From positions 1 through 37,943 of the forward strand of contig JAUCBJ010005365.1 in NCBI GenBank assembly GCA_032718475.1: DNA of 37,943 bases. Direction: 5' to 3'. Within the stretch, counting starts at the first letter, position 1. The number at the start of each line of letters is the position of its first letter. The position numbers were made by a program, and so were the translations under genes. Shown one piece after another: positions 2,650-31,568 of the stretch. This DNA comes from Nemertoderma westbladi (Eukaryota; Animalia; Xenacoelomorpha). The notes under the pieces are model-generated. The model saw only the letters and a list, made by a program, of their open reading frames with translations. It ran no database searches and was not told where the DNA came from.

Positions 2650-2702
2650 AAATGCAGCTGCAATGCAGCATGCCGATCCTAGTAGTAGTAGTAGTAGTAG
2701 TA

Positions 2703-3276
2703 TCGCAGTTCAAAGCAGCCATTTGCGAAAGGTATAATAGTAGAACATTGAAGACAAAGATGTATAAAATTTTTAGTAGAAGAGGCAATCCTTGCTATTC
2801 TACCAAAAATTGTATACTCATATAATAATTCTATACATAGATCTATTGGAATGCCCCCAATTCAAGTCAATAAGTCGAATGAAGATAATGTGAGAAGAAA
2901 ACTTTACGGAAATTTAGCTAAAATCATTGTAACAAAACCCAAATTGAGAATAGGTGACAATGTGCGACTTAATATAGCTAAAACGGCGTTTGAAAAAGGT
3001 TATACAAAAAATTGGACTGGTGAGGTGTTTACTGTGAAACGTATAAGACTAGATCGTTTTCCTCAGCCTATGTATCATATAATAGATTCAGTTGATAGAG
3101 AAATAGAAGGAACATTTTACCCTCACGAATTGCAGAAGGTTACACAAACAACTGATATTCAGCCAATCGAGTCCATTTTGAAGTCTCGATTAAAAAACGG
3201 TCGGAAGGAATTCCTTGTAAAATTTAATAACTATAAACGGAGCTCTTGGTTGAACGAGTCCCAACTACGTAAATAA
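2703..3276 (+). pseudogene. Polinton retroviral-type integrase, C-terminal half with chromodomain-like tail
   Basis: KAAICERYN(S)RTLKTKMY (catalytic Glu helix), then a frameshift, then LPKIVYSYNNSIHRSIGMPP, GDNVRL...FEKGYTKNWTGEVF, GTFYPHELQ and the chromo-like IESILKSR...EFLVKF...SWL. The 5' half is cut off by the LINE. Confidence 0.88.
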
Positions 3277-3286
3277 ATCAACAAAA

Positions 3287-4209
3287 ATGAATAACTATAT
3301 AACTTTATTCTCAAATGGACCTACAAACAAATTTCCTGATAACACCCTTTCGAAATTTACGGTTGATCTACCATATACAATCAATCTCAGTGGTAATGTA
3401 GAAGTGGGACTATCTGAAATTCAATACTGTTCCTCATTCTATAATATACGTCAACAATCTCTGTTTACAATTTATTATGGAGATAGGACATCGCAAGTTG
3501 TTATATTTGAACCAGGACTATATACGAGTGTAGAAGCCATTATTAATAAAATCAATCAACAAATTGATCACCCGAAGTGGCCCCAAATTCAATATTTCTA
3601 TTTGAACCAGGACTATATACGAGTGTAGAAGCCATTATTAATAAAATCAATCAACAAATTGATCACCCGAAGTGGCCCCAAATTCAATATTTCAAATACT
3701 CAAATAAAATCGAGCTCGCTACTTCGCAACACTTTTCTTTTGAAATTACTGGAGATTTGATTACAATACTCGGTTTTGAGGAGTTTACGCAGGATTATGA
3801 TCCGAGGGATGTACCTTATCTAGCTAATTGGTATGATTATTGGAGTGTAAATGTTAGTGAATTTGGCTCTTTAACATTCAAACAGCAACCGGGACGCGTG
3901 CTCATTTTAGAGGGATTTGTCCCTTTTCTTGCGATTTAGTCTTAGGGCAACATAATTTGTTTATCTATAGTGACATTACTTCTCATGTGACTGTAGGAAA
4001 TACGACGGCACCGTTATTACGCACGGTGCCTCTCGAACTTGAGCATAATAAAGTTATAACACGCGAATTTAAAAAAAAATTATTACAGACCAGTTGCTAG
4101 AACAGTTATTAATCAGATAAATATTGAATTACGCAACGAAAAAGGAGAACTAATATTATTTAATGGAGGTGCAACAATAATTACCCTACACTTAAAAAGT
4201 AAGTCATAA
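3287..4209 (+). pseudogene. Minor capsid (penton) protein 1, frameshifted
   Basis: N-terminal YITLFSN...FPDNTLSKFTVDLP..INLSGNVEVGLSEIQY; C-terminal LFIYSDI...VGNTTAPLLRTVP and YRPV...INIELRNEKGELILFNGGATIITLHLK. Broken by a 95-bp duplication and two further frameshifts (~3930, ~4075). Confidence 0.8.
3504..3693 (+). repeat. Exact 95-bp tandem duplication
   Basis: 3504-3598 equals 3599-3693; removing one copy rejoins the ORFs starting at 3287 and 3577 in frame. Confidence 0.95.
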
Positions 4210-5003
4210 TGGAGAAAATATTATATTTACCCTCGAATTCTTCACCTAAACGATTTCAATTAAATCAACCTTCTAACTTTAATGTGGATCTATCTGAACC
4301 ATTGCGTTTTAGTGGAAAGTGGATGGTGGGTTTGTCAAAAATTGTTTACCTCTCCTCGGTTCATAATTTAGAAGATACATTCATTTATATTCAGAGTTTA
4401 CAAGGAACTAAAAGAAAATATATAATACCATCTGGTTGCTATACTGATGTGGAGGCGTTGCTTACACAGCTAAATATAGATGGTCTCAATTCCCATTTAG
4501 AAATAAGACAAAATGAGCTTTATGACAACATTAGTATTCAGTTTATCGGTGAAAGTAAAGTTGTTCGTTTTTATGGAAATAAGTTGATTGAGTTACTTGG
4601 ATTGCGGGGATTAGAAAATGAGTATTATGTTAATAAAAATAAATTTCTTGTTAGCCTAAAAAATGATTATCTACAAATAACGCGAAGGGGGGAAATAGAG
4701 GGTGATTCTGATATATTACATATTCAAAAAGCAGCAAATGTTTTTATGGGAAACATTAGTATATTTTCAAATATTTGCGGAAATGAGATTGTTGGAAATC
4801 AACTGAAACCCCTCTTAAGATCTATTCCTTATCAAGGAGATTATGGTAAGCTTGTTCATCATGAATTCACAAATATTAATTATAAATCCATTGATATGCA
4901 AAATATAGAAACAATAAATATACAGTTAAAAAATGATCGAGATGAATTCATAAAGTTTAATAATGGTACTGTAATTGCGACATTAATTTTGAAACGCCAA
5001 TAA
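4209..5003 (+). CDS. Minor capsid (penton) protein 2, intact, 264 aa
   Basis: LYLPSNSS...NQPSNFNVDLSEPLRFSGKWMVGLSKI, IPSGCY, IFSNIC...IVGNQLKPLLRSIP, YKSI...INIQLKNDRDEFIKFNNGTVIATLILK; paralogous to penton 1. Confidence 0.82.
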   Translation: MEKILYLPSNSSPKRFQLNQPSNFNVDLSEPLRFSGKWMVGLSKIVYLSSVHNLEDTFIYIQSLQGTKRKYIIPSGCYTDVEALLTQLNIDGLNSHLEIRQNELYDNISIQFIGESKVVRFYGNKLIELLGLRGLENEYYVNKNKFLVSLKNDYLQITRRGEIEGDSDILHIQKAANVFMGNISIFSNICGNEIVGNQLKPLLRSIPYQGDYGKLVHHEFTNINYKSIDMQNIETINIQLKNDRDEFIKFNNGTVIATLILKRQ

Positions 5004-5136
5004 ACGATAAATAAGGAAATATATTCAGGAAGCAATGAGTTATAAAGATTGTTATCAAAGGAGTTTGTAGAAAACATTACAGAGAACACTTTATAAGGTT
5101 ATTCGCGGTGGCGTTAAAAATAAACAGACTGGGACG

Positions 5137-6271
5137 ATGAAGGGTCTCAGCTCAGAAATTGTTACACCCCCTTCCATAATGAGGCAACGATTACAATTAT
5201 TAGAAAGGAAACGAAAGGCGGGGGGAGGACTACCTTGTTTTGAGGGGGGATATAGACATCGACACATGAACACGTTCGTGGGGACTTCGCGCAGCACGTA
5301 GTCGGCAAGCCTTGGCATACGGTTCATATAGAGCAAATGGGGCATGTCTAGTTTGGACCCCATATCCCATGCTATAAATGTATTCATTCGATATACAATC
5401 ATATGTTAATCCGCTAGGTGGTGTCAAATTGTTATTCTGCAATTTCGTACTTACCAGTGCAGCACTGTACAGCAGTACCGTACCGGTAGGCCTATGTCAT
5501 TACTTCTGAGTCTCTAGCGGATCCCCAATTAAATGTCTTAACTTTTCAATTTCGTAAAAGATAGACTTCATGATTCTCTACAGGCCACCAAAATTTCAGC
5601 TCAGGAAAATGAGGCCTTCCCGAGAAATTTAACATTTTCTAAAAACCACATAATCTGTCGTAGCTGACGTCAGACTGCATGATTTTTCACCAAACTCTAC
5701 AAACTTTCTAAACTTTCTCTCTACTACTTACCTACTAAGTTTGGTTCAATTCCAAACGAGCGATACCGAGAAATTCGCGTTCAAACATTTACCAGACAGA
5801 CGGACGGACAGATAGACGGACAGACAGACAGACGGACATGCCCCATTTGCCCTATATGAACCGTATGCAAAGGCTCGCCGACTACGTGTCTCGCCCCACA
5901 GTCGCACAGTTTTTGTGAGACACGGTCAACGAGGTAAAGGTATCCTTGGAAATATTATTCGGATTGCAACTAAAGTAGTGCCCAAAGTTATTAAGCCCGT
6001 CGCGCGAGCAGCAATTCGCAAAAGTGCTCCTTTTGTAAAAAAGACAGGGAGAAAAATTGTCAAACGAGTAATTCGTCGGGGAATTCCACAACTTAAAAAG
6101 ATTGGAAAGAAATTAGCAGAACAGGCTCTCGCCAGCTCAAAACCTTCCACTAAACGAGTAGCTCATAAAATTATTGAAGAAGTTTTAAATGCTGCTGATG
6201 GGAGGTCAATAAACGAAACTCGCAAAAAACGCAAATCAAAAAAGCATCACTGTCCAGATATTTTTGGCTAA
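5137..6271 (+). pseudogene. Basic core/DNA-condensing protein (pVII/pX-like) split by an insertion
   Basis: Removing 5269-5899 gives in-frame ...KAGGGLPCFEGGYRHRHM-SRTVFVRHGQRGKGILGNIIR..., a Lys/Arg-rich protein ending DIFG, located just upstream of the major capsid gene. Confidence 0.65.
5269..5900 (-). mobile_element. Helentron-associated (DINE-1-like/HINE) non-autonomous element
   Basis: Minus-strand 5' end TGTGGGGCGAG, (GTCY)n microsatellite at ~5794-5837, ~54-bp internal inverted repeat (5296-5348 / 5835-5888), 3' end CCCCACGAACGTGTT, no TSD. Confidence 0.7.
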
Positions 6272-6285
6272 ACTAAATAATAACA

Positions 6286-7543
6286 ATGGAAGAAACCACG
6301 GAAGAACTAAATTTAGTTAATCGCGGTAATGTTCAGACTGTAATTGAAGAAAGTTTTGAGCAGGAAATATACCCTGTGACTACATTGGGAGAGGGCACAT
6401 CAGTTATAGATTTCATGATTGAAAAGTCAGAAGATTACTATAAGATAGGAAGTGAAACAACACTACAATTAGTATATCGTATTGTAACAACAACACGACC
6501 TGACAATGGCGCAGTTTATCAAACACCACTAAGCCTCTCTACTCTATTTTCAAACATTAGTGTTTTGATTAATGAGCGGGAGGTAGAGTCTAATACTGCA
6601 AACTATCCCTATAAAGCTTTCCTAAAAGCGGTCTTACTTAATGATCAGAGTACAAAAGAAACGATTTTAGCTGTTAGCTGCCGAAGGGTTTGCAGAACAA
6701 GAAGCATTTGGTGTTCCTGTAGACTTTGCTGCAGCTGCTCATTTGGAAAGTAGACCATATTATGTTCAGGGGTCTCTATTTGTTGACCTTTTTGAACAGG
6801 CTAAATTTATCCCACCCAAAACTAGTATAAGAATTAGATTAACAAGAGCTACAAATGCATTTAACTTAGTATGTATTGCAGCTGTACAAGAGCCTCGAAT
6901 CATTATATCTAATGCTTTGTTGAAAATTAAACGAGTAAAATTGGATCCATATATACGTCAACAACATATAGAACAATTAAAAATAGGAGATTATATTTAT
7001 CCAATTATACAGAATGAGGTGACAACCTTTACTATAGCAAATGGTCAACAATCTCATGTGAGGGAAAATTTGTTTACAAGCAAGAATGTACCTCGCTTTG
7101 TTAATATTGTCATGGTTCGAAATGACTCTTACAATGGAAACTTAAGATCTAATTCACTATTGTTTGATCACTTTAATGTGAATTACTTACAACTTACACT
7201 GGATGGTAAGGTAATTGGAGGTGTGACATATAAACCAAATTTTGCTACTGGACAATATATTAATGAGTATTGCGCCAGTCAAAAAAACCTGCTATCTATA
7301 ACCAGAGGTACAAACAACGGCATTACTCCCACTAGATTTTGTGATTTATATCCAATATTTTCTTGGAATTTATCCCCCACGGGATTTCTTGATGAAGACG
7401 AACGAAACCCACATCAAATAGGCAATGCTAGATTAGAGATTGCTTTCTCAGCTCCTTTACAAAATACAATTAACGTTATTATGTGGGTGGGATATGATAG
7501 AACTGTGAATATCAGCAATGTCGGATCAGTAACTATTTTCTAG
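6286..7543 (+). pseudogene. Polinton/adintovirus major capsid protein (double jelly-roll), one frameshift
   Basis: Q..IEESFEQEIYPV, LSTLFSNISVLIN, NYPYKAFL, DLFEQAKFIPP...IRIRLTR, NLFTSKNVPRFV, FDHFNVNYL, GNARLEIAFSAPL. A 7-bp duplication TTAGCTG (6667-6680) shifts the frame; removing it gives 416 aa. Confidence 0.88.
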
Positions 7544-7553
7544 AAAGAAAAAC

Positions 7554-7981
7554 ATGTTGAACTCATATGATTTGAATAATTTCCCTATATAGAACATTAT
7601 CGTGGTTCTTTCGCCATTGATCAATTACCAGCGAAGGATGGCTCTAAAATGAGCTTCATTTCAAATACTCAAGCCGCTCATTTACCTGGTATGCACTGGG
7701 TCGCTGTTTTTATGAATGAAAATATAGGTGAATACTTTGATTCATTTGGAGTGTTCCCCCCGGCTCGTATAGAAGACTGGTTGTTGCGTAATACAATAAA
7801 ATAGACAAGGACACGAAAAGTGGTTCAACACCCTCTAAGGACAAGTTGTGGGGGATACTGTTTATATTACTTATCTAAACGATCAAAAACTGACACGCCT
7901 CTACGCAAGTTTGGAACAGACTTGAAACAAAATGAAAAGATACTTGCATGTTGGTTGCGGAACAAAGCCATAATGAATTGA
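7554..7981 (+). pseudogene. Adenain-family maturation cysteine protease (missing from the ORF track)
   Basis: YRGSFAIDQLP, FISNT...PGMHWVAV (His), EYFDSFG (Asp), VQHPLRTSCGGYC (Gln, Cys). Lesions are a 2-nt frameshift near 7590 and an in-frame TAG at 7802-7804. Confidence 0.9.
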
Positions 7982-8221: not shown

Positions 8222-9934
8222 TTAGTTTATATCCACAGCATCTAGCTTTATCTTTTTCTGTTCTATTGGAGGATAGTGAGCTAATTTTCGTTTTATAATT
8301 TCCATCGAATATCTTTTAGAGACGTTGGGGGAATCATTAGGGTGAAATAGATTGAGGTGGATCTGCTTGGGGAGGAAAACTGCATCTTTTAGTATGCGTT
8401 TGAGAAAGTTGATGCAACACTCAACAGCATAGTTTGAAGGTAGGGTTAATTTCTTTGTTGTCTTCAGGTTGACAATAATTGTTTCTGATGGTGTATGTTG
8501 AATGTGTATAAGGGGGGTGAGATAGTAATGGGAGGAAGTGGATTGTTGAATGAGATGAAAGTTGGAGAAATCACTCGCTTTTATATTTAAACCATCGGTA
8601 AACTGAAACGTAGTTGATTTCAAATATTTTTTGATGACAGGCCATATGGCAACATAAGCTTCACCTTTGAATGAATAAATGAAAGCCGCTACTGATTCGT
8701 ATAAATTAAGACACTGGTGATTAGGTAGTTGTAGTTGCTTTGGTTCATAATCACTATTGTTAGCCAATGACTTTAGTTCAGAGAGTGCTTCTCGGGCGCG
8801 ATCTGTATTGTCAATAGAGAACATGTAGTCATAGCGTCTGTCAGAAATTTCGAGGGTTTCGCAGCTGTAAGCGGTATAAATTTTTATTCGATCTGAAATT
8901 AATTCTTCGTGGTTGACTTCATCGTAGCATTCGTATCCTTCGACCGCAGAATCGAACCATGAAATTTTAAGAAGTTCATTTCTCATGAGTAAAATTGCAT
9001 CTCTTGTGGAAACAATAACTTTGTTTGAATCAACCTCAACTCCGCTCGCGATTGCAATGTTTCTTTTATTATTAATATTTGTGATATAACCAAAAGTAGA
9101 ACTATCGAAAGAAACATAGTTCTCTGACTCTAAGACAATGTGCGAGATTGGATTGATGTAAAGACGACAAATGTTTATATAATGTTGTAGTAAAGCAACC
9201 GCAGTGTCTGAGATGGTTAACCAACCCCCATCTACTGTATCTTCTAGTTGTATTAAATCAATAGGTTTCAGTGGGGATGTTTTCGAATAACGAACAACTT
9301 TAAAATTAAAACCAAAATAATGTGCTTTGCTGTTGTTGTAGAAACAGGTTATTTCATTCAATTGTTCAATAAAAGTTAGTACATCATATCCAAACAGTTT
9401 GAAGAAACGAGATTCATCTTTGAGGGGATGAATCGAGGCGTTCCAAATAATTAAAAGAATTGAGTTTGAAATATTATGAAAATCAAACAGACACTCATCA
9501 ACAAAAAAGGAAGCTTTGAGTGTTGACATACCAAGGAGCTTGTTTGCAGATTCTTGTGTTACATTGCTGTGGATATATTCAACAACCGGTTGAGGTATTA
9601 CAAATGTTTCTAGCGAGGTTGTCAGATTGAACATTATATTCGATTCTGATTTGTGCAGTTTGAAACCATGGTTTGCGGAATGAAATTTATCATTATTTAG
9701 AGTTTGATATTGACCATCCTTCAACTCAAAGCAGGATCGTAGAATGAAATGTGCATAATTTGCTGGAATGAGTTGGGGTTGGTTAGATGAAGTGGTAACC
9801 GTCATTGGAAAGCGTTTGTTCGAAGGATCAAAATATAAACCGAATGAGTTGTCTGAGAGAGATATTTGATTTTCGTTGGAAACAATTTTTACTTGAGGGA
9901 AGTTGAACTTTTGAAGGAGTTGAGCTTGAGCCAT
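8222..9934 (-). CDS. Uncharacterised 570-aa intronless protein, probably a viral accessory gene
   Basis: Long uninterrupted ORF in AT-rich DNA, convergent with the protease; C-terminal basic NLS-like KRK...KKIK. No family recognised. Confidence 0.7.
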   Translation of the reverse strand: MAQAQLLQKFNFPQVKIVSNENQISLSDNSFGLYFDPSNKRFPMTVTTSSNQPQLIPANYAHFILRSCFELKDGQYQTLNNDKFHSANHGFKLHKSESNIMFNLTTSLETFVIPQPVVEYIHSNVTQESANKLLGMSTLKASFFVDECLFDFHNISNSILLIIWNASIHPLKDESRFFKLFGYDVLTFIEQLNEITCFYNNSKAHYFGFNFKVVRYSKTSPLKPIDLIQLEDTVDGGWLTISDTAVALLQHYINICRLYINPISHIVLESENYVSFDSSTFGYITNINNKRNIAIASGVEVDSNKVIVSTRDAILLMRNELLKISWFDSAVEGYECYDEVNHEELISDRIKIYTAYSCETLEISDRRYDYMFSIDNTDRAREALSELKSLANNSDYEPKQLQLPNHQCLNLYESVAAFIYSFKGEAYVAIWPVIKKYLKSTTFQFTDGLNIKASDFSNFHLIQQSTSSHYYLTPLIHIQHTPSETIIVNLKTTKKLTLPSNYAVECCINFLKRILKDAVFLPKQIHLNLFHPNDSPNVSKRYSMEIIKRKLAHYPPIEQKKIKLDAVDIN

Positions 9935-10045: not shown

Positions 10046-10137
10046 TTTATAAGGGAAAGGGTAACCAATGAAAATAAAAGTGAAGCTTGTGGGTACCAAT
10101 AGAAATAAAAAAGAGAGAGAGAGAGACGTGCTATTGG
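10046..10137 (-). promoter_or_regulatory. Possible Pol II promoter of the 570-aa ORF
   Basis: Minus-strand TATAAA at 10046-10051 and CCAAT at 10133-10137, upstream of the ATG at 9934. Confidence 0.3.
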
Positions 10138-10704
10138 ATTGAGGGAATAATAAACACATTTCATTGGGTTCATTAAATGTAAAACCATAGTTAGGATGGG
10201 AAATGGGGTGAATTGAGAAGCGGGGAGTGCGCTGGAGAAAAGTGTATGTAATGAATGGGCTGCTGCATCAGAATGGGTATGCTAATTAATGTTAAACTAC
10301 AGTATCTGAACAAATATTTTAGGCATGGTATGCGTGAGGGGTTATGCATTACTTCAAACAAAAAACTACAGTAACTAGTATAGAGAAGGTTGGGGGTTAA
10401 TTTGACATATGGTTTTTTTGGGGGTATTGGCTTTGTCAATGAGCTAATACGCGCGCAGGCTGCTTCGCAACACAATGCGAAAGAATGCAATCTATTGCAA
10501 GACCAGATGTTTATTCTAATTTCTCTGGCGAATTGACAATGGTTTGCATGATAACAAAGCTGGAGTTTAAATAATTTAAAATGTGTGGCAGGCCCACGTT
10601 GACATAGAGTATAACTCAACATGGGATTCCGTGGGATGCTTAATCCTTCACGCATGCCATACCAAAAACTATGGTCCTGTTTGAAATGTTGAGGTGGACC
10701 TTTC

Positions 10705-10737
10705 TATATAAATAAAACCATGTAAAGTTAGATCATT
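10705..10737 (+). promoter_or_regulatory. TATA + Inr core promoter of the CHHC zinc-finger gene
   Basis: TATATAAATA at 10705-10714 and TCATT at 10733-10737 (~30-nt spacing), ~75 nt before the ATG at 10813. Confidence 0.5.
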
Positions 10738-10812
10738 ATCTCTAAAAAACATTAAGTGAAGTTTTTCAAAGTTTTTTAAAAGTAAATCTTAATAAATTTG
10801 TCTTTTGTTACT

Positions 10813-11136
10813 ATGGAGTACTTTATATGCCCGTATGATGCCACGCACCGGATTCATTCGGAGAAATACGTCAAACATCTAAGAAAATGCCGCAAGAACT
10901 TTTCCGACCAAAAAATGGTTCAGTGTCCCTTTGAAGTTGCGCACAGCTTTAGAGGAGCTGAAAAGGACCACCATCTACGATTTTGTGAATACCGGAACAG
11001 GAACTCAATTTTTGAGATATTAAAAGAAGAGAAAAAAGAGAAAAAAGTAGAGAAGAAGGAGAAGAAATTGAATGTTCGATGGCGTGGGGAGAAGAGGTGT
11101 GGGATTGATGTGATGATGCGATTCTCCGCACTCTAG
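10813..11136 (+). CDS. GTSF1: GTSF1/Asterix-like protein with two U11-48K-type CHHC zinc fingers (107 aa)
   Basis: CPYDATHRIHSEKYVKHLRKC and CPFEVAHSFRGAEKDHHLRFC, both C-x5-H-x9-H-x3-C, joined by an RKN linker as in GTSF1; intronless; first ATG at 10813. Confidence 0.85.
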   Translation: MEYFICPYDATHRIHSEKYVKHLRKCRKNFSDQKMVQCPFEVAHSFRGAEKDHHLRFCEYRNRNSIFEILKEEKKEKKVEKKEKKLNVRWRGEKRCGIDVMMRFSAL

Positions 11137-11254
11137 TATAAATTGTTATGTAATTATAATTGGATGTCCGGTGGTGTGGGGAGAAGAGGTGTGGGATTGA
11201 TGTGATGATGCGATTCTCTGCACTCTAGTATAAATTGTTGTGTAATTATAATTG
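11066..11254 (+). repeat. 92-bp tandem duplication of the 3' end of the GTSF1-like gene
   Basis: 11066-11157 versus 11158-11249, with a few substitutions. Confidence 0.9.
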
Positions 11255-11290
11255 GTGTATAAATTGTATGTACGGTGCAGCCATGTATAT

Positions 11291-15053: not shown

Positions 15054-15274
15054 TGTGTTTTAAATATGTAATGTAGTAGGACAATATGATAATGCTCACC
15101 ATATCAACCGACCCTATTGGGGCTCGAACCCGGTACCTAGGTTTCAAACTTCCGGTTATCATCAGGAAGTTTGAAACCTAGGTACCGGGTTCGAGCCCCA
15201 ATAGGGTCGCTTGATATTTTTCGCCATGGAGAGCATTATCATACTGTCCTACTACATTATATATTCAAAACACA
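15054..15274. repeat. ~220-bp palindrome (foldback) with tRNA T-arm/B-box-like arms
   Basis: Perfect 45-bp inverted repeat at 15109-15153 / 15165-15209 with an 11-nt loop and imperfect outer arms; each arm contains GGGTTCGAGCCC. Confidence 0.8.
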
Positions 15275-15298: not shown

Positions 15299-15394
15299 CT
15301 GTGTTTTATACTTCGGCAACTTGGGGTCCATCTTCTTGGAAACATGTTTCGCTAAATCGTCGAAAACATGAAAAGCGAATGTCCCAACCAGTTG
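15299..15394 (-). CDS. GLS: Glutaminase exon 10
   Basis: [32 protein letters not shown] followed by the donor CAG|gtaat. Confidence 0.9.
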
Positions 15395-18300
15395 CTGCAA
15401 TGTAAAAATAGAGGATTAATCAATATAAAGCAGGACAGATTGGTCAAAAGTAATTTACAGCAAAACTAGTCCCTAAAGATGACACTTAAAAGGGTTCTGC
15501 ATAACCATAATTTGAGGAGGAATGTTGTGGAACACTATCAAAATATTACCTTAAGTCATCGCAGAAACAATTAACTAATGCCATAAAAACTGCAGCCACT
15601 TATCCAACAAAAAGAAATAAAACCCTTGGTTCGATAATGAGTGCAAATCCAAGAAATCTGAAATTCAACACTCACATACCCGTCATACTCACATACATGT
15701 CCAGGAATATAGTGTCTTTATTACGGTACATTACGAAGAGTCGCAGAAAACTGATATAAATACTGTACAAAGTTAAATAGCCCACCACAAATTGTGAATT
15801 ACTTAATTATGTTTACCTGACAGAATTTTATTCCTCTGACACTGTTACCGAGCTGATCTAATGGCGGACTCCATATGACAATCCCACAGAGTTTCGGTAT
15901 AACCAGAATAATAGCACCAGAAACAGCAGATTTACCGGGTAAGCCAACCTAAAAGGAAAATATTATATAGCCAACTGACTTACTTACTGTTTAAACCAAT
16001 TGCCTTTATTTATTCACATATCTCGCCGGAGATCGTGGGTTCGATCCCTGCACGGGTCCATGGTAGTTTCGTTTTGGCACAAATCCTTTAAATTGATTAG
16101 CCAAGGCGCTGATCTGCCTTGCATCATTAAATGATAGCTAATTGAGTTTCATCTGGGGAGTAAAGTTCTGGGGGGACCGCACTGGAAATAAGTCGTCAGA
16201 CTTTGTGCGTAATCCCTGGCCTAGCGGCCAAAGAAAATTTACTTTTTATTTACTTCATAACATTTATAGTACAGAGATACAGGCGGGGTATGCATGGTGG
16301 GATTTAAAGAACGCTGTCTGGGCTGCAATAGCAATACTTCTGCCTATTACTGTACGTGTACAATTCCCCTCTCTGGTTAGGCTACAGCAACAACTCCCAG
16401 CAGCTAGCAGCTCCACACCAGCGCAGCAGAGACTATGTTGACCAATAATGGGCAGGATTAAATTTGTACTCAATAATTGTGTTTCTATCATCATCATTGA
16501 GTCTATGGCAATTTTCGTATGGGGCTATTTTTCGAAATAAAGAAAAAGACACTTTGATAATTTTTTTCGAAACTTTTATTTCCACATCCTGGGGTTGAGC
16601 TTCGTCTATTGATATAACTTTCATTGACGTACGAATTATAGCTTCGGAGGAGTTCACCTGATATACATAGATACATAATACTGTACTTTTACAGTAAGAA
16701 GTCCTAACGGTCTTCTAATTATTTATCTGTGAAAGATAATTTTAAATTTCGAGGAAATTAAATTATTTTACATGGAAGTCTACGTAATGTTGTTTAAATT
16801 AACTAAATTTGTCATTTTTTGCTAGGACACCGGCTTAAGGGGAGGGGGGGGGGGGGGGGGGGGTATACCCCACCTCAGGTAAAATTTTCAAATTGTTTCA
16901 AATTATTTCACCTAGAGCAGAATTTAATGAGGATTACAAATCTGAAAACCGCTTAGTGAGACCTCTTTCCGAGTTATCACCGTTTTTCCGTATGACGGTC
17001 TGTCCGTCAAATTATAAGAAATGCAGAAGACCGACAGACAGAAAGAATAGACTAGATTCCATCAAAATTAAAACTGACATCGGAAATGAAATCAGTGTCC
17101 CCGAAAACCCCAGTAATGAACATTTTAGCTCGTTGGTGTGCATCCTTCGTGCCAGAAATAATTAACCAACCAAAACACAGACAGCCAATTTTGGCGGGAC
17201 GGTTTAAACTTTGGAGGGCATTTTCTCGGAATGACATTTTTCATTTTCAATTTTCTACTCCTCTGTAATTTTTCAACCAATTTTATTCGTGTTTAGCTCA
17301 TTCAAACGAGCTTTGGAAGCTCTTTAAAAGTTATCTTATGGAATTTTGATAAATATTACCATTTTTTCTAATTAGCCAATTTTAATTAAAAATATGATAA
17401 TTAATTAATTAAATCGCATCCCTTATCTCGCTTTCCACACGAGATTTTGAAAAATCCGGGTTCTTTCCATTTGCCTTTATAATCAACGACTCAACTCACA
17501 ACTCGATAAGGGAAATTTTTTCCCTTGGTTTTCTTAATGTTGACGGACATACCGTTTCGAGTGCACCAATTATGTAGGGAATAATATTATCAGCAGCTAT
17601 TTAATTAACCGCTCCAAACAATGTAAAATCCAATCAGAAGCCTTCATTTCGTATGTAATTTATGTTAAATTAATTTCTTAAAATATGTAGTAATAAAATA
17701 AATATGAGTACCGGAATAATATTACTCATTCTAAGGGAATATTACTAATGTAGTACATCAATCATTGCGACTTTACATATTGAAACAGATATTAGAATAT
17801 TCATAAGTAAAATATACAAAAAATATTTAACAAAAGTAGTAACAATCCTGTAATATCATACAGTATATTATGATTTCAACATGCGGTTGGTCTAGTGATA
17901 TTACTGGGCTTCCGCAATCCGTTAAACCGATAAGTTTGGATAGATTTCGTAGAGGATTGGCCGAATTATTAATAATTAGCAACAAGGCTACAGAATGACA
18001 AATCCACAGATACACCGATTTAGTTAGTGGTATGCTAAAACCATATGCTAAGCTCGCTTAATTTTGTGGCTCGCCCCACATAATAATTTAATTTCGGTTA
18101 ATTTTAACCAACAATACCAAAGTACTGTATCTTTGACATTTAATATGAAAGTGTAAAGAATTAATGTCAGCAGTTAATTAATTAACTGCTCCAAACAAAA
18201 TTTACTACGCTATTATATCGATCGTACAACCGTAAACTGTAAACAGATAATCTAATGTAATAAACAAATAAAATAAGAATACCGAAAAAATATTCTCATT

Positions 18301-21300
18301 GTAAATGTTTATTACTTCTATTAATAGAACAATAAGTGTGATTTTACGTATCTAAATAAATATTAGAATATTCATAAGTAAAATATATAAAATATATATA
18401 AAAGATTAGGTGATATGTTATACCATTATATTAGATTAGAATTCAAATTCCCGTTCTTATCAACCTTTGTGAATCCTTATTCCTCCAGCGGTTAGAGCCC
18501 ATGGATTCCCATAGTTGAGTACTGGAACTTCTGCTGCCCTAAATATTCAGACCTTAAGTTTCCGATGAATTCTGTGTGACATCCAAATCCTGGAAAGCCC
18601 ATTTAATGCTGCCCATGCCTTTCCCTTACGTAATCGAAGCTTCTCTCTCACCTGACTTTGGGATACATGATCCCAGGTAACAGAAATCATCCACATGCCG
18701 CCCATGTGAAGAATACCAGGATTTCACTTTTCGGTCGACTTTTTATTGGAATTTTATATATGAAGATTTTTTATTTTTTTTTTAATGTATCTTTACTAAG
18801 TGTTTTATAGCGCTTATTTCTGTCTTATAACCTGTACATATACTAATTCGTTTATTGTTTTGGTTAGATTCAGCCCTTCTGTAACCTGTGGTTTTGGTGA
18901 AAACCTGGTATTATTTACATGGGGGTAACTGCAAAGTGAAATATAACGGCAGAAAGTCTGGAATTCTTCACATGGGCCCCACATGCAAGAGTATACCCAT
19001 ACCATCCTTTGAGCTTATGCTCATCCGATCAGAAATATACTGATGACTTTAAATTTTAACTGTCAACATTATGGCATTCTTGGAGTTTAAAAAAGACCAT
19101 CACTAGAAGCAGCCTGTTCTAATGAGCTAAGGAGCCCTTGTACTTCCTCAGCAAAGTCTAGAACAGTTAACCCTTTAGGTGATAATGGATCATCCATGTG
19201 TTCTATAAGCAATGGTCCGCTACTGCACTGTGTATTACACCATAATATGGCATAAATTTAGTATCGATATTCAATAATTTAATACTCGATTGATATTATT
19301 GATCGTTTTAAATGATTTTTGTATTGCTGAATTATTTCGATTGATATTATTGGTCATTTTAAATAAAGTTTTTCAACTTAAATATTTCGCTTGATATTAT
19401 TGATAGATTTAAATAATGTTTCAAAACTGCTTTATTTTGCTTAATATTATGGGTTGATTTAAAACATTTTGTCTGTTTGCGTCATATACATTTATATATG
19501 GGGTATGACCGTTAGGAGGCTCTACCTCTCCCTTTGTACATGGCCTCTCTAGGCTTACTTTATTCGGATATACTGCCGTTCATACTGATGCATGGCTTAC
19601 CGGTACACTGGTTAATTATTGGCAGTCTGATAGTCAGACATTATATATGTGATCATACGCTTCTGATAACCTATACCACATGTATTAATAACACGTTCGT
19701 GGGGCCATCGCGCAGGACGAGGCTCAGTTATCAGATACAGATTAAAATTGAGCGACTGTATCACAAAATCAGGTTTTGAAAAATTTACCCACACCACCAA
19801 TCAATCAAAGAAAGGGGGACAGTACGTGTTCACCCCTTTTAATCTGCACCCCCCCCCCCCCCCACCCTTCCCACCCACCAGTACTTTATAACTACCGATG
19901 CCTTCAATAGGCGAAGCCAGATATGGTTTATAGGAATATAATCAACGCAGTAGGCAGTACTCGGCTTCATTATTATAAACGTCGTTGTGCTCGTCCTTTT
20001 TGTATTTAAACATATTTCCTAAACGCAGACTGACGGACGATCTATATAACTACCGATGCTTCAATAGGCGAGGCCAGGTATGGTTTATAGGAATATAGTC
20101 TACGAAGTACTCGTCTTCATTATATGCCTCGTTACGCTCGTCGCTTGTCCTGTTTTGCATTAAAATATTTTTCCTAAATCAAGACTGACGATCTTTATAC
20201 AGTTATAACTATGCGAAGTTTCGAAAATTTGCGAGTAACTGCTGATACATCTATGTGGAGATGTGTGATATGTGGAGATGTGTGATACAACGCCAACGCA
20301 TCGTATGCCGATGTACGTAGTAATATGGGTATTGAAATACTATTAAATCAATGTACACTCTTAAAGCTGCAGCGAAAAAATGTAGATAATTTCCTAGGTT
20401 ACATATAAAATAATAATATTATTTTTAAGAACATTAATTTTACTACTTTGCAAAAATTCAATTAAAAACTAACCAGACAAATATATTGCGGAATAAACTA
20501 TTTCAGATATAAGCCTACAACAGTCATTATATCTTCTGTCACCTGAGATAGTAAGTAATACAACATTTATAGTATAGAGTCAATAGGAATTGAAATACAG
20601 GCAGTGTATGGTTGGAGTTATGTCTGGGTTGCTATAGCAATACTGGCTGCCTATTACAGTACAATTCGCCTCTGGTAAGGCTACACCAACATCTCCCAGC
20701 CAGCTAGCAGCTCTACACCCCCGCAGAGACTATGTTGACCAATAATGGGCAGGATTAAATTTGTACTCAATAATTGTGCCGCTTTAATTACGTTTAGATC
20801 AATTAAAGACACATTTATTAAAACAAATCACTTGAACTAATTAAAAACTATAATAGAATGGGGTATGTGGATTACATCTGTATAATTTATAAGTATAATT
20901 ATATAAATCTTATACGGTAAAATAATTAATTTCCTTTAACAGGTAGGTTGAAAATGCAGTTTTTACCGTAATCAACTTAATTAACTAATTAATTGCTATT
21001 ATCTTAGCTTCTCGAAGGCCACACGGAAATTCAACTTGGAAAATTTCTAAACTTTTGCCAGACTACATGTGTACCAAATTTGGTTAAATTTCATTAACAT
21101 TTGGCTGAGTTATTAACGTTTAAATTTGGACACAACAGAACGACAGAACAACAGATCGACAGATCGACAGAGCAACAGACACACCGATTGAGTTAGTGGT
21201 ACCTGTATGCTAAGCTCGCTTACTTTCGTCGCTCGCCCCACACACAGACTCACCCGCGGTCTAGATCAACCATGGCGCAGTAATAGGTACGACCTAAACC

Positions 21301-24300
21301 TAACCACCTCGCAAACCAGCATTCCCCACCAACTCCCGCCGCGCAGCTTCATACTACGAGACAGCCCACCCACATTCGACATCGAGTCTGAACGCCTCAC
21401 CTGGGACCTGTGGTGCGATGAGTGGGACGGCTTCCTAATAACCTCTGGACCACCTAAACGACCACCTACTGGATCAGTTTGTGGCTGGATTCAACGACCA
21501 TGAGGTCACCGAACAACTCCTCCACCTCGAGAATGGAGCCACCCTCAACGACGCCCTCAAACGCCCCCAGTCGGTCTGTCCTTCATCGTCTCCATGACTA
21601 CTGCCACACTGTCCCACAGCATGGCGACCCATTCGACACCGACCCCAGATCCCAGAACCTCAGAAACCAACCACCACCCAACATGCCAACAATGCGGATA
21701 CCCACAGCACACTGCTGGGAAAATGTGCCCCGGTTTACAGGCGACATGCCACCACTGCGGTATAACCAGGCATTACGACCATATGTGTCGTACTAAACCA
21801 AGAGGACCCCGGCCACAAGCCCACGCTACCTCCGGCTCCGACGACGCAGACACGTACACCGCTGCGACCAACGCTGTCGTTTGGTCCGTCCTGGTCAGAG
21901 ACGAACTGGAGGATGCGAACTGGAGAACTGATCATCTTGCGATGATCGTTTTTTATTGTTTGTTTTTTACTATATTTTATGATGCTTTTATTGTTGGTTT
22001 TTAATTACTACATTAATTTAGTTGATTTTTATTTCATAACTATGGCTATTGCAGTCACGAACTATTAATTACTGTGTACTATGTGTTGTCAGCGCCTTAG
22101 AGTACGTATATGATGTAAATTTGGCGCTATATAAATAAATATATATTATTATTATTATTATTATTATGCCCTGCGGGTCTCGGCAATCGGGGCACTGGAG
22201 CCCCTCGAAACCATCACCATCGGGTTCCAAGTGACAAGGACCCAGCCTTTGGAATATCCGACGTCCGCTTTCTTCCCGACTCTGGGGCATCAGTCATCAG
22301 TATAATCTCGGAAGGACATTATTATAAATGTTAACATGTTGAAAAGATGTGGGGCGTGCGTAGAAATAAGCGTACCGCTGCATTAATTGTTATCAAACGA
22401 GACTGCTATGCTTTGTAACAACTTATGTACTCGACTATTCTAAACCGCTAGACTCACATTGAAAGCAAATTGTCCACTGTAGTCATACAGGCCACAACTC
22501 AGCATTAGTGATAATGTATCCCGAACTGAGGCAGTTGTTAGTATCTTCTCCCCTGTTAACGGGCATATACCCCCGTTTGCGAGTGTTGAAGCCATCACGC
22601 TTAATGACTCGCAGTTCACTTCCATTGAGCACATCTGGACACATAAAGTGAGAAAAGATAAAGAGCGAGTAACAAAAAAGAAATATATATTTTCTAGAAT
22701 AATTATATACAGTGTACCTATATTTCTCTGCATAAATATTTACAATAACTATTTACATCATTATGTGCAAAGTAGCACTTTGCAGCGTTATGACCCGAGT
22801 TTATTTATGTACCGAGCGAGCGCAGCGAGGGAGGCTTACATCAATAAACAAGGGTCTTTAACGCTGTAAAGTGACCTTTGCAAGGAATGATGTATGTAAT
22901 TTTGTTACATTATGTCAACTTATCAGCGTTGTGTCAACGTGTAAAAAGTCGTTTATGTCAACTTATAAAGAAAGGATTTTATGGTTGCTCATTTAAACAT
23001 TTTAATCATGAACTATATCAAATAAGTGAAATTTATTAACAGGTACACAATATTAATTATACATTATTAAATCTAAATAAAGTTTATTGGATGTTATCTC
23101 CTGCTTGGGTGTGATAAATCATTAATCCATCTTGACTATAGTCGACTGAAGCAAACTGAGTCACCGTTTTGTGTCCGTTCAGTTTTACTGAACATTGTCG
23201 TCACTTTCTTTGGTCATTTTAGTGTCTTCTATTGGACGTTTCGACATAATGGATTACAGTACACGTTAAACAATTCTTTACATACAGTAGCTAGTCCTGC
23301 ACTGTAGTCCCGTCACTGCAAACTGGATAATAAAGCAGCACTCATTAACATAAATGGAAATAATAAATTCTGGAATACGGTAATTGAAGTTGTTTCCATG
23401 TCATTGATTACTTTGCAGCGTTCCGTCCTATAGGCCGTAACGCTGCAAAGTAGTACTTTGCTGCGTTACGAGTAATTCACCAGAACGCTGTTAAGTTGAC
23501 ATAATGTAACAAAACTTTTTTTTAATTTTTTTTTACTTATTTAAATTAAATTAAAAGTTACATTACATTTAGAGTACATTACATTACAAAACTTTACCTT
23601 AAAATACAACTGGAGTGTTTCATTAAGATTGGTATAAGGGGGGAAGCATTTGTATTCCTGCATATAGTAACCCAAGGCGAAGTTCCTACTGTTAGCAGAA
23701 TATTCCGAGTCATATGTTGTTTGGCTGAATCCAACGAATTCACCACCAGCTAATTTTTTCATTATACTATGTAGCTAAAATAAATAAAAAAAGTATTAAT
23801 TTTACAAAAAGATGGCAACATTTTTTTTGTCCAACTTTTTAATCCGCATTTTCGAGGAAGAGTATCTCGCGCCCAGTGAAAAAAAGTACTTATTTTACTT
23901 TTTCTAATACAAAGAGGAAAAATATATTACACTAAGAAGTATTTATTTTCAAGTAAAAGATTTAGTTTTCTTAAAGATGTTATACTTTATGAGTTGTTTA
24001 TTAATAATTACCATCATATTTACTAATATAGAATAAATAATGCAAATTCTACATAATAAACTCCCAGATCGTTTCGAGTACGCGGTGAGTGCAATTACTA
24101 ACAGTATCAAACCGGGCGTTGGCATTGCCTGAAAGCTCCCGTTTCAGCAGGGACACCACTGCGATCGCACCCGCGTTTATCATCGGGTTGTGGGGTTTAC
24201 TGTTTAAGTCGAGACAAATATCGTTGAAATTTCTTCCAGACGGTTCTTGACCGATGTATTCGTGGACCTTTTCTGTACAATAAAAGGTTAATATGTGTTG

Positions 24301-27300
24301 GTAAAGTTGTTTATAATTAAAAAATATAATATGCATTTGGCAGGCATGCAGTATCTGCAGTATGGGTCAACGTACAGTATTTGGCAATAAAAGAGGTGCG
24401 CTATACACCCTATAGCACCCTGTACACCCTGTAGCACCCTGCACACCCTGATTTATTACAATCAATAGATCTGTTGATTTCTGTAGTAACAGCCCCCAGC
24501 TGGGGATGCCCCAAATCAGAACTGGATCTACTGCTGTCCGAAATAAATTTACCTTCATATAAGATTTGTTTCCAGGTGATTTCCCTACCATTGATACGGT
24601 TGTACGGTTAAAACTATGTAACTCCAGTTGAGGAAAGAAAAAAACTTTTTGAAATGTCTAGTTCAAGTTTAAAAGTCGTCATGATTACATCGAACGATAT
24701 TACGTCGAAATTAGAACCAACAAAAATCTCCATAACGCCAGAAAGTGGTGGAACAATTAATTTACATAATAAAGGGATATTCAAAATTTGGTGCTAGAAC
24801 CAAAAATTTACACTACCCAAAAAACCAGTTTGAATTTCTAGCTCATTTCACATGTATTCCATCGAATTGTAATCCCCAAAAATCCAATGTTACTATAAAA
24901 AAAAGAGATGATACAATTAATAATTTCCAGCAATTAAATTCTCAAAAATAGAGATAAAATTAGTGTTCAAAAATTGCGCTATATATCGAAAAGTAGGCGT
25001 AGGATGTAAGGAGGCGATATATTTTTCACTATTAGGAGACAACATATTTCTATGATAAGACCTAAAAGTTCAGATTCCAACTCAGTTTGTTTCAGAGAAC
25101 CACGGTAACAAAAAACCGCGGTAGGGGAGGGGGGGGGGGGGGGGGGGTGTCATATTGAACCAACGTAAAACATGTAGTGGCATATTGGGTGGGCTCGAAC
25201 TCTCGACCTATGCCATCGCAACGCTACGCTAATCTGTACAACCGTACCTGAACCGTAAAGAGTAGAGGCCAAGGCATACAGTAGAGGTTTGGAACAGGAT
25301 TGAATGGTAAATGTATCAGAAACATCGCCGATGCTAAATCTAAAAATATAAAGAAATTAAATTTACATAAATATTACCACTCACACTCAAAAAAGATATG
25401 GACAAACATTTTTTGGTTATATTTTCCCCGATTTATATTTGATGTACTACATGGTACACGATTCAGTCCCTTTGCCTCTCTCAGTAAATTTAGTAAACAA
25501 AATAATAATTAATGGTTAGTTTATATTTTCAATGTTTTCCAAATGAAGCTCGTTATCCCTCCGTCGGTGTGGTTTCCCCCAAGATGGTTTTACCATTTTA
25601 CCTTAGAGGACCTCACAAACACAAAACCCAAAGCTGTTATAACATCTGGATTGTAATTTACTTTAAAAAATTCGTTTTCGACACGTTCTCGCAGATAGGG
25701 GGGATACTGGACGCAATAAAAATTCATCCCTCTCCAGGGGGGAATTCGACGCAAATAACAGCTCATTACTCTCAAAAATAAAACTTTAACCTGTTCTATT
25801 GTGTTTAGTTTATTGTTTTGGTTAAAAAACGTGCCACTGTATCCTGCTCCTTTCCCTAAATTGAGAATTTAACTTTGAGGCGGGATATTAATTCGCCAAA
25901 GCGGGTTTTGCGTCCAGTTTCCCCCCTGTCTCCGTTCTCGAATCAAGTCAAATTCAATAAATTATCATGTGTTCTGGCGCGACTGATATAACTTTCGCAC
26001 TTTCTATCACAAATGTAGTGATAGAAAGTATTAATATTGAGAAAATAAGTACTTTCTTTCTTTAGTAAGTAGTAATTTGTATAGGTTATTTATTACCTTT
26101 GTCCACTGATAGTGCAAACAGAAACGCCCCATTTTTGTGTGTCAGCTTGGGCTAGGATGGGGATGTACGTTGCAACCTTACCGCCGCCCTCATTGCGGCA
26201 GCTGTTATATAAACGTTCCATCTGGTAGCAAAACTCCTGGAAGTCGGGAATAGCGAGTTTCTTCTCGAACGCATTAGTGAGTATCGTAATATTATCTTTT
26301 ATCGCGCTAAAATATAATTTGTATAACAGTGATGATATTAAAAAATACCTAGATTACGTCACTCACGCCTCCAATATTGTGGGGCGTAAAGAAACTAAAG
26401 CATTTAAATAATAATTCCTGTTTAACAATAATACAGTAATATGATAAATGATTGGTAATATATCTTTATTATCCCCAAAGGATAGTTTAAAAATGTTTCA
26501 AAATAAATACAAAAATATGTAAGTGCACAATTTAAATAAAATATAAGGTTACCGTTTAAAATAACTGATATGAGGCCAATGAAAATATGAGTCCGTAGTA
26601 CTTGAAACTTTCTGGAAAGCTATTATATGATTAATATAACTCAATTTATGAAATCACTTAAATTTAAAGTGTGGGGCGAGCCGTGTATTCTGCGAGGGTT
26701 TTACAAACTGAGACTTTTGGGGTCATTTTAACCTGTCAATTATCGAATGTTGGGATATAGAACATATATTATGGTTGGGATATAGAACATATATTATGGT
26801 TGGGATATAGAACATATATTATGGTTGGGATATAGAACATATATTATGGTTGGGATATAGAACATATATTATGGTTGGGATATAGAACATATATTATGGT
26901 TGGGATATAGAACATATATTATGGTTGGGATATAGAACATATATTATGGTTGGGATATAGAACATATATTATGGTTGGGATATAGAACATATATTATGGT
27001 TGGGATATAGAACATATATTATGGTTGGGATATAGAACATATATTATGGTTGGGATATAGAACATATATTATGGTTGGGATATAGAACATATATTATGGT
27101 TGGGATATAGAACATATATTATGGTTGGGATATAGAACATATATTATGGTTGGGATAAAGTTGGGAACTTACTGAATAAAATCATCGCAGAGAAGAACAG
27201 ATGATACATTAGACGACCTGTATGTTTCTATGTTTGTCCGTAGCTCTGACAACCGGGGGTCTGTGAGCCTCAAACCAAAAGAGTTAATTTCCTGAAAGTT

Positions 27301-28803: not shown

Positions 28804-30058
28804 TTTTCTTCCACTCGAAAAATCGATGTAATTAATTTATATTTATGAAAAGCAACAGAGGCAATAAATAATGAATCAAATAAATATTGATTAACATATT
28901 AAATAATTTTGATTAAAATATTCACTAATATTAAGTAATTAATTATTTTTTAAGATAGGTTTATTTATACATTATGTAAAAACAATAACAAATACACCAA
29001 ACAATGTACCGGTATAAAAGGTATTGTCCAACATAACATACAGGATTAAGCCTAAATCTTTACAGCTTATTTCCAAGGGGGTCTAATATTACGTTAAATA
29101 AATTCAAGATATTTATATATATTATATATTATAGATTCAATCTGCTGTTTGCGAAATAATACATCAATATTACGAGGATCAGAATTAACAGAACAAGGAA
29201 TTCAACAAAATTGTATTGTACATGTTTAATTAGAACCGGTTCCCATAGCAATTATGACTAATTAACCGGTATTTTGGTAAATCATTTATATGAAACCTAG
29301 GAGTGAACTCGCAACTCCAAACCGCACGTGCAGAACCGATTACAATTACTCCCTACCACGATATAATCATAAAACGCGAGATAAATAATAATAATTGTAG
29401 ATCACAATTGTATCTGTATGTGCAGGCTGGTTTCCCTATCTCATATTCAGTCGCAGATAAACTGTTGTATCTCACTGGACAGATCTTTAGCAGCCCGCAG
29501 CTTCCATCATTAACCATCAACCAATCAACTGATCCCTGATAAATGGGTTATAGGGATGTTCCTTATGCTAGGAGCTCTTCTAGGAATACAACATTTTGGG
29601 AAGAGGGATTTGGGTGAGGTGGGGGGGGGGGGGGGGGGGGGGGGGTGCGATTGGATGGGCCTAATTAGTAATTACACCAAACTCAAGCCCCCAACCCCGA
29701 ATATTTCTAGGTTAATTTAAATAATTAGATTTTATCACTTAGGAATTATATACTGTAAATTTGGTTTTTTTATTGGAGCATTCTGATTTGAGCAATATAT
29801 CCTTACGAGGTACCCGAAAACTTGAACCTTAGCCATGATATAGACGTTGTGGGCTGCTTAGCCAGGCAGGTCTGGTCCTCTCTGTTGCAACAGCCAAGTG
29901 TGAGATCCAGCTTTACACTACAGCTGAGAATCCGGGGACCAGGGCCGTATTAATTAACGGCGGGACTTTTGGGACTGTAGGCCCGGGCCCCGAATAAGTT
30001 TGGGGCCCGGGCCTCAAACCAAAATTCATCAATTTTACATTACTTATTATTTTTATAG

Positions 30059-31568
30059 TTTTTAATTAGTTCAAGTGATTTGCTTTAAGAAATGTGTTTT
30101 TAATTGATCTAAACGTATTTAAGTCATCAAAATGCCCTCGTCACTCTATACCTCCCTCATTCCTTGGCATGCTTGCTATTGCCTATAATTTGGGAACCAG
30201 TCCAATCATCTCACCACTACTTGGCAACTGGTAATTACATCTATAGCATAGGACATAGGCCGGCACTACTAGTGTAAGGTGCCATACTAATAATCCAGCT
30301 TGCTTATTATTTATCTATAATATATAATATATTATATGTAATTATATATAATATATTATTTATCTCGTAAAATGATTGCCTGAGTATTTAATCATGATTC
30401 TTTCGAATAATTAGCTAAATAATTTCGTTGAGGTGTTGACATTATAAATTAATATTTCAGTACCAATACTATCGGCATAAGGTGAGTTTTAATAAGTTTT
30501 ACTAATTGGGTTGCCTCCACACCTAAAAATATATTACTTTTAAAACACATTTTTCCTGTTAATTCCTCTGCCTTTCATTAATCCTCTGTGCTCATTTGGG
30601 TTGGGGTGGTGCAGATTAAGAGGGCGGTTGAAGCGAGAAGGGGGGAACTTTCCTCTCTTCTTTGATTTATTCTTATTGGCAGTTTGTTTAAATTTCTTAT
30701 TTATTTATTTAAATTTCTTAAATGCCGATTTTGGGATAGAATTGCTCCATTTTAATCTGTATCTGATGACTGAGCGTAGTGCTGCGCGAAGGCCCCATGA
30801 AGGTGTATAGCTTATAGCTAATAGTGAATAATGACTAATTGTATTTTATAGCAGAAACTAACAATTATTTTTGAAAAATACTGCCTTGAAAATAATAAAA
30901 AATTAGCGGTGGCCGGCCCTAATGCTGGCCCAAAAATACGAGATGGTGGGGGGGGGGGGGGGGGGGGGGGGATATGCGTCAAAACTCCACCCCCCGGTGG
31001 GGTCTTGACGCATATCCCATCACGGCGAATTAATATCTCGCCTTTATGTTAAAATATCAATAAAAGAAGAGGAGCAGGTTACAGTGGCACATTATTCTAA
31101 CCAAAACAATAAATAAACTAATGACAATAGAACAGGTTAAAGATATATTATTGGGAGTAATCAGCTGTTATAGATTTCCCATAAAGAGGAATGAATTTTG
31201 ATAGCGTTGAACCTCCCACCCCCCCCATCTGAAATTATACAAAATTTAATAATATGGTGCCTCCCACATATCCCGGACCTGAGAATCTGATTGGCGGAAC
31301 TGCTGTACAGTAGTTATGAAGCAGGGGATGATGGGGGTGTGGGTGTTGCTGCTTTGGTGAGGTAGTTCGGCAAAATTTTGTTAACATAATTTTTTTCAAA
31401 AAACAACTATATTTTTGGATAGTACTCAAGTCATATTCTGAACCTATCTGAACCCAATCTCGAGAATTATAACAAATCTGAATCCAATCTGAATCGAAAA
31501 TAGAAAGAGGGGTGAAAAAAATTATTAATTTTTGCATTAACAATTTTGAAATTTGAAGAAATTTTACA
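30059..31568 (+). repeat. ~1.5-kb direct duplication, copy 1 (copy 2 at ~33205-34651)
   Basis: Colinear sequence, including the identical 102-aa spurious ORFs at 31235-31543 and 34318-34626; copy 1 is bracketed by a ~65-bp direct repeat (29981-30047, 31574-31643). Confidence 0.9.

Follow-up and report, generated by a model that had tools for sequence, protein, structure and literature searches.

A GTSF1-family gene beside a Maverick capsid module in Nemertoderma westbladi, a possible element-encoded antagonist of the piRNA pathway

A small intronless gene of the GTSF1/Asterix family lies beside the capsid module of a decayed Maverick (Polinton) element in Nemertoderma westbladi (Xenacoelomorpha) and is probably cargo of that Maverick family. 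Its product appears from sequence comparisons to be a complete minimal GTSF, with two CHHC fingers and, in many copies, an acidic tail ending in Trp-Asp. Such a protein could act on the PIWI proteins of the host, more likely against them than in their favour.

The window is the whole stretch of DNA that was analysed, 37,943 nt of contig JAUCBJ010005365.1 (assembly GCA_032718475.1). Copies elsewhere were followed in contigs of four public DNA runs (X1-X4) of the same species label, which come from three samples and three studies; one run is perhaps the source of the window. The features discussed are collected in Table 1.

Table 1 Features of the element and of the GTSF-like cassette in the window.
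Feature	Position	Strand	Remarks
Integrase-like gene, 3' part, chromodomain-like end	2702..3276	+	Pfam: weak Chromo match only
Two minor-capsid-like genes	3287..5003	+	First broken; second intact, 264 aa
Basic core-protein-like gene	5038..6271	+	Split by a 628-nt MITE
Double-jelly-roll (DJR) major capsid gene	6286..7543	+	Frameshifted in window copy
Cysteine-protease-like gene	7555..7980	+	Broken; weak match to ASFV S273R (E 0.057)
Orphan ORF	8222..9934	-	Intact, 570 aa; viral-core depth; divergent from finger gene
Repeat unit (promoter and gene), ~780 nt	10326..11111	+	End joins start of next unit elsewhere
TATA box and Inr-like site of cassette	10705..10737	+	Putative promoter, from sequence
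GTSF1/Gtsf1L-like ORF	10813..11136	+	107 aa, intronless, window copy
Fingers of the GTSF-like ORF			Finger 1, C6-H12-H22-C26; finger 2, C38-H44-H54-C58; then charged helical linker and tail
A-rich linker	11040..11065	+	Length variable among copies; sets frame of tail
Acidic Trp-x4-Trp-Asp-stop tail	11066..11108	+	Second frame of window copy
92-nt tandem duplication (gene end and 3' flank)	11066-11157 / 11158-11249	+	93% identical
Right break of element	11283..11289	.	Depth drops to flank level; broken DNA transposon starts

The GTSF-like gene and its tail

Both fingers of the ORF keep the C-x5-H-x9-H-x3-C spacing exactly, with all eight ligands present, which bears out the two perfect fingers in an intronless frame that an earlier note on this DNA had described from the letters alone. 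The interval given there, 10705-11254, is wider than the ORF: it opens at the TATA box and closes with the downstream duplication. A DNA pattern for the double finger occurs once in the window and in none of 100 shuffles. Pfam zf-U11-48K matches the ORF in two stretches (E 2.9e-10), and the best matches in the PDB are mouse GTSF1 (6x46, E 4.9e-11) and, from the PIWI complex 9nhb, the GTSF1 chain (E 3e-8); U11-48K aligned to one finger only (E 0.009). Pfam found no further domain in the ORF, hence neither the spliceosomal nor the methyltransferase body that is the trait of U11-48K and TRM13, respectively. The AlphaFold2 model of the window protein has a pLDDT of 92-96 over residues 1-60, and its best two Foldseek matches are 6x46 (E 1.7e-4) and the GTSF1 of 9nhc (E 1.3e-3). 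The model fits the latter, PIWI-bound GTSF1 with an rmsd of 2.6 Å over 69 columns. Judged by sequence and predicted fold, the ORF belongs to the GTSF1/Asterix family and not with U11-48K or TRM13, and the GTSF1-type identity proposed earlier holds.

A search of 1.84 billion representative proteins gave 403 matches at E 0.001 or better. Among the 150 of these listed, identity to the ORF does not exceed 51%, and the homologues that carry names are animal GTSF1 proteins. BFVD gave no match to the protein at E 0.001 or better, word-index protein searches returned nothing for this ORF or for the orphan ORF, and none of five window proteins had an exact entry in the protein collection. Mouse R26, R29, K36 and K39 correspond to H, K, K and K in finger 1, so that the window protein has three of the four basic sites, the commonest state in the family (133 of 231 relatives). 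In profile score among the 231 relatives finger 1 stands at the 18th percentile and finger 2 at the 3rd, and the drift of finger 2 includes an invariant-like Asn/Asp position. The earlier note had suggested a phylogeny; a tree made by a quick method on 64 columns, with 78 finger pairs, gives the gene an end branch of 1.2 against a median of 0.31, but is unresolved and indicates no donor lineage.

In the window copy the Trp-Asp tail is out of frame, and the last ~20 codons differ in frame from many other copies; this is a decayed copy. The last Trp of the second-frame tail lies ~39 codons past the last finger Cys. Two linker-length variants, among the 12 of 50 rows listed, open into the Trp-Asp frame, and together they make up ~43% of the local depth in X1, ~78% in X2 and ~76% in X3. 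A strict finger pair is present in 141 of the 150 homologues listed (of 403) and a tail of at least 45 residues in 115, of which 94 have an acidic-Trp-acidic motif at a median of 42 residues after the last Cys; by itself this motif appears in 9% of shuffles. The joint between repeat units lies 3 nt past the Trp-Asp stop. Taken together, the position of the motif, the linker variants and the array joint make this stop the likely natural end of the gene, and by analogy with known GTSF proteins the tail is a likely candidate for a PIWI- or Tudor-docking motif.

Since the product would thus be a complete minimal GTSF, its shortness is no sign of a decoy. The earlier note had read the short version as a decoy, dominant negative or modulator of PIWI; an argument from shortness to a decoy is not supported by the architecture, which is that of Gtsf1L, a working activator, with the Trp-Asp tail in many copies and three of the four basic sites.

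TATATA lies 108 nt 5' of the ATG and an Inr-like TCATT ~28 nt past the TATA box, so the TATA/Inr pair noted earlier is present as sequence. Further upstream lie two copies of a 33-nt motif, inverted relative to each other (10317-10349 and 10636-10668, 82%); the motif marks where the repeat unit begins and may resemble a paired-domain binding site. Within the unit, the ~50 nt at 10476-10524 have a depth far above that of their neighbours in the four runs and different flanks in some contigs, and are a motif common to other repeats or cassettes.

The Maverick module and the copies of the gene

The Polinton capsid cassette reported earlier as adjoining the ORF is present, with a DJR major capsid gene, but it is decayed by frameshifts, stops and insertions. 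Against the protein atlas the capsid scored 0.98 to DJR-like clusters and 0.95 to an NCLDV capsid, its recognition value of 2182 lying below the tool's mark of 2300; Pfam gave no match for this gene. The minor-capsid-like genes are a tandem pair and not a single gene. We assume the first gene of the module to be an integrase, the pair to be minor capsid genes from position and familiar motifs, and the basic gene to be PW/cupiennin-like, presumably so from its position. With several labels thus assumed, the order integrase, minor capsid, PW, major capsid, protease agrees with that of the second Maverick module in the available part of PMC8097293.

Besides frameshifts and stops, the window copy has a 95-nt duplication, a MITE, a LINE at its left and a broken DNA transposon at its right. 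The MITE-like insert in the basic core gene (5270-5898, 628 nt with 54-nt inverted repeats) is missing from the main element copies in all four runs and is very abundant by itself. The LINE (1-2702), with a 611-aa reverse-transcriptase ORF and a TAG-repeat tail and preceded by the tail of a second LINE copy, replaces the left part of the Maverick copy. To the right lies a broken cut-and-paste DNA transposon of low depth (11283-14300, minus strand), presumably hAT-like by its motifs, whose terminal repeats were not found in the window.

The element is cut at 2702 and ~11283. Between and around these breaks, the six frames of the window gave no motif of a protein-primed polymerase or packaging ATPase, and the window holds no terminal inverted repeats (AG/AGT ends) or 6-bp target-site duplication enclosing the gene, in line with the missing right terminal repeat noted earlier; the AGT runs in the window are LINE tails. 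An (AG)7 run at 10112 was rejected as an end of the element because a contig of X2, with a depth of 1663, bridges 10062-10193 at core depth. The orphan ORF, intact and back-to-back with the finger gene as previously described, has CCAAT-like boxes and a TATA box upstream, and no relative of it was found in Pfam, the protein search, the viral contigs or the atlas.

Spliced glutaminase exons occupy 15300-25300 (minus strand). A motif search of the window turned up no ankyrin-tail exon, for which reason the element may lie inside an intron of the glutaminase gene. Elsewhere in the window are a long nested hairpin at 15054-15274 (arms of 53 and 49 nt), which is probably a MITE, a 25-nt tandem array at 26649-27248 and, at 30053-34336, a long 8-nt satellite with a 3.1-kb duplication around it.

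Depth in the runs was summed over contigs; because overlapping contigs inflate it, it is not a copy number and is to be read as an order of magnitude. Contigs of the viral core reach ~4000-5100 in X1, 1100-1230 in X2 and 740-830 in X3, and the DNA right of 11283 reaches 84-130, 9-29 and 19-29, respectively. The finger ORF stands, to an order of magnitude, at 0.49 (X1), 0.53 (X2) and 1.11 (X3) of core depth and at 17-71 times the depth of the DNA right of 11283 in these three runs. No bin from the orphan ORF to the finger gene falls to flank level. In X4, a low-depth run from the third study in which a gap in coverage carries no weight, the viral core and the orphan ORF are covered but the GTSF-like gene is not.

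Each contig of a finger variant has only ~5-15% of core depth in X1, and the cassette is therefore not identical in all copies. Variants of the gene are up to ~17% apart, and the contigs listed differ from the window at no more than 21 of 120 letters. The best-supported 40 of 129 rows list 17 differences in codons 2-61, of which 15 are synonymous, an excess (p 4e-6) over the transition-only expectation of 0.33. This pattern argues that the finger gene is under purifying selection in other copies. Head-to-tail joints from 11111 or 11203 to 10360/10361 were found in X1, X2 and X3; position 11203 is the twin of 11111 within the 92-nt duplication, and the bridging letters of the joint resemble 10326-10339. 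Other copies form head-to-tail arrays of the ~780-nt cassette. Among the run contigs, which are short, none spans the capsid and finger genes and none has the gene between terminal repeats.

The gene is thus multicopy, of core-like depth, continuous with the element and without poly(A) or target-site duplication, and its carriage by the Maverick family, as supposed in the earlier note, is likely. That note had allowed for a single-copy host retrogene, which is rejected by the multicopy depth, the variants and the arrays in the DNA runs; at the finger gene there is no A-run of 8 or longer and no flanking repeat of more than 8 nt.

An unlikely alternative is that the gene is one of a tandemly arranged family of short host GTSF paralogues, lying beside a dead Maverick fragment or once picked up by it. 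No terminal repeat was seen, and the finger variants differ more than the core genes do (12-21 differences in contigs of 118-160 nt against 4-9 in 330-790 nt), both of which suit a host array; short and tandem GTSF paralogues of hosts are known, with short forms in ants and several paralogues in flies (PMC9539491; further background on the family in PMC13650160 and 10.1101/271270). Depth, however, stays near core level past the orphan ORF and on into the first part of the repeat unit, and most copies of the element therefore seem to continue into it; the intronless gene with neither poly(A) nor a flanking direct repeat over 8 nt, and its long branch, also speak against a host array and for Maverick cargo. 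Five ant paralogues among the homologues (P0140, P0225, P0232, P0233 and P0240) are 102-108 aa long with a Tyr-Trp acidic tail.

Recurrence of the association was sought in other collections. A metagenome scan gave 61 double-finger loci, most of them short, and none was matched by tblastn with nine proteins of the window element; at loci of at least 1.8 kb, 156 neighbouring ORFs were host-gene-like or noise by eye. Nine of the loci (L004, L005, L008, L017, L027, L028, L054, L055 and L061), on AT-rich contigs, hold similar double-CHHC frames of 127-221 aa, and in the portion of each frame looked at no acidic Trp motif stands out. Viral contigs gave no locus for the finger gene, the orphan ORF, the capsid pieces, two finger patterns or the integrase end, blanks that say little since the core genes are also absent and the collection lacks this Maverick family. 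The co-occurrence of capsid and CHHC genes that the earlier note had suggested looking for thus did not recur in these two collections, and the association so far concerns one family under one species label.

Possible effects on the piRNA pathway

The action of mouse GTSF1 depends on four basic residues in finger 1, and its tight binding to PIWI on three tryptophans (PMC9385479). In silkworm Gtsf1L the terminal W99-D100 contacts Vreteno and helps the protein bind Ago3 (PMC10711660), of which Gtsf1L is an activator (PMC9808576). Activation by GTSF paralogues is PIWI-specific and may fail when the PIWI is not the partner of the paralogue (PMC9385479, PMC9808576).

The protein described here would compete with host GTSF1 for target-bound PIWI, a reading that is placed first although we hold it at somewhat short of an even chance. 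The Maverick would have acquired the gene from an animal, and at a remote date to judge by the long branch and by the lack of any listed relative above 51% identity. It would have pared the gene to its RNA- and PIWI-contacting regions and multiplied the result in an array. Finger 1 would bind RNA, and the Trp-Asp tail would attach to PIWI or to a Tudor protein as partner. Finger 2 and the linker, having diverged, would be poor activators, and expression of the element would then slow slicing, the ping-pong cycle of amplification or the assembly of nuclear silencing complexes. Competition for the PIWI cofactor site would in this way blunt the germline defence.

This reading is ranked first because the element gains most plainly from a slower PIWI, because GTSF paralogues are partner-specific and may fail to activate the wrong PIWI, because the docking parts are kept and finger 2 has drifted, and because diverged variants arranged in arrays point to dosage or to more than one target. 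Against it, the basic patch required for activation is largely kept in finger 1, and the architecture is the same as that of the silkworm protein, a working host activator. In addition, a broad block of piRNAs is expected to harm a germline element and to sterilise the host, as argued in the available part of PMC6719617.

The fingers of the cargo could instead bind RNA, such as tRNA or viral mRNA, or another small-RNA enzyme, leaving PIWI unblocked. We think this improbable, though the preserved basic patch of finger 1 and the lack of an in-frame tail in the window copy would suit it, as would the reports, in abstracts, that GTSF1 binds tRNA and that the partner of nematode GTSF-1 is an RNA-dependent RNA polymerase and not PIWI. 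Many copies nevertheless retain the Trp-Asp tail to the end of the unit, and in mouse and silkworm a motif of this type binds PIWI or a Tudor domain (PMC9385479, PMC10711660).

A true activator, carried as cargo and speeding up PIWI slicing, is distinctly unlikely. It would serve the element by limiting its own copy number, by hitting competing elements or a co-infecting virus, or by biasing one PIWI paralogue. The parts list shared with BmGtsf1L, the family-typical set of three basic sites and the fit of the model to the PIWI-bound GTSF1 of 9nhc all agree with activation, whereas the drift of finger 2, at its invariant-like position included, does not, and the gain for the element is harder to see. 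A counter-defence at the RNA level, in which piRNAs from the captured sequence silence host gtsf1 mRNA, is very improbable: fragments of nxf2, aub and piwi have been captured and amplified within Drosophila telomeric elements, but in the excerpts available those captures match the host gene at ~90% identity and cease to work near 80%, while here a whole ORF with promoter shows apparent constraint at the protein level and variants up to ~17% apart.

Of these readings, competition for PIWI leads to a tentative wider proposal, which we regard as possible but doubtful: that the Maverick encodes a protein antagonist of the piRNA pathway, a GTSF1 mimic whose accordion-like array of variants would jam the PIWI paralogues of the host.

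Genes of the piRNA pathway evolve fast, and an arms race with antagonists encoded by elements is often invoked. A whole GTSF-like gene in a virus-like element, apparently under purifying selection, is a concrete, small and easily expressed candidate for such an antagonist, and existing PIWI slicing assays suit it directly. If the proposal is true, this would be the transposon-encoded anti-piRNA protein predicted by arms-race models. Even if the protein is an activator, a mobile element with a PIWI cofactor in protein form would be new within the literature searched.

No report of a GTSF-Maverick/Polinton association was found in the excerpts of the literature searched; cargo tables of Maverick surveys or Repbase entries could list such a gene. 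Papers naming both GTSF1 and Maverick are reviews or meeting reports, with the two terms unrelated in the passages looked at. According to a review of 2019, the piRNA pathway had no known anti-silencing factor encoded by an element (PMC6719617), and the later cases found work through captured RNA fragments (PMC13534243, PMC7785250).

Comparison with known systems

The protein closely resembles Bombyx mori Gtsf1L and other short GTSFs, with which it shares two CHHC fingers, a basic finger 1, a length of ~100 aa, the Trp-Asp end and the predicted fold. Gtsf1L and mouse GTSF1, in contrast, are products of chromosomal host genes and activate PIWI. The window gene differs from Gtsf1L in being intronless, in its many diverged copies beside viral genes and in its drifted finger 2.

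In the order of its module, its intronless genes and the accessory ORFs beside the module, the element is like the Mavericks/Polintons in the available parts of PMC8097293 and PMC8502044. The window fragment, unlike full elements, is without polymerase, ATPase and terminal repeats. Known Maverick cargo includes IAP, Bcl2 and oncoid genes (PMC8502044), and nematode Mavericks also carry cargo genes (PMC11512509, PMC11131425); in the parts of these three papers available, neither GTSF nor any other piRNA factor is among the cargo.

Drosophila telomeric retroelements likewise carry and amplify sequence of piRNA-pathway genes, namely pieces of nxf2, aub and piwi, 140-235 bp long, whose effect is exerted by piRNAs (PMC13534243, PMC7785250); gtsf or asterix is not mentioned in the available part of PMC13534243. 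Those captures are short, near-identical fragments, whereas the present case is a whole gene in a DNA virus-like element, with selection that appears to act on the protein. VANC of the Arabidopsis VANDAL transposons is also an accessory protein of a DNA element tied to the control of silencing (PMC6719617). As far as the excerpt of that paper goes, VANC acts on the methylation of DNA within its own transposon family and, unlike the GTSF-like protein, has no homology to a host cofactor.
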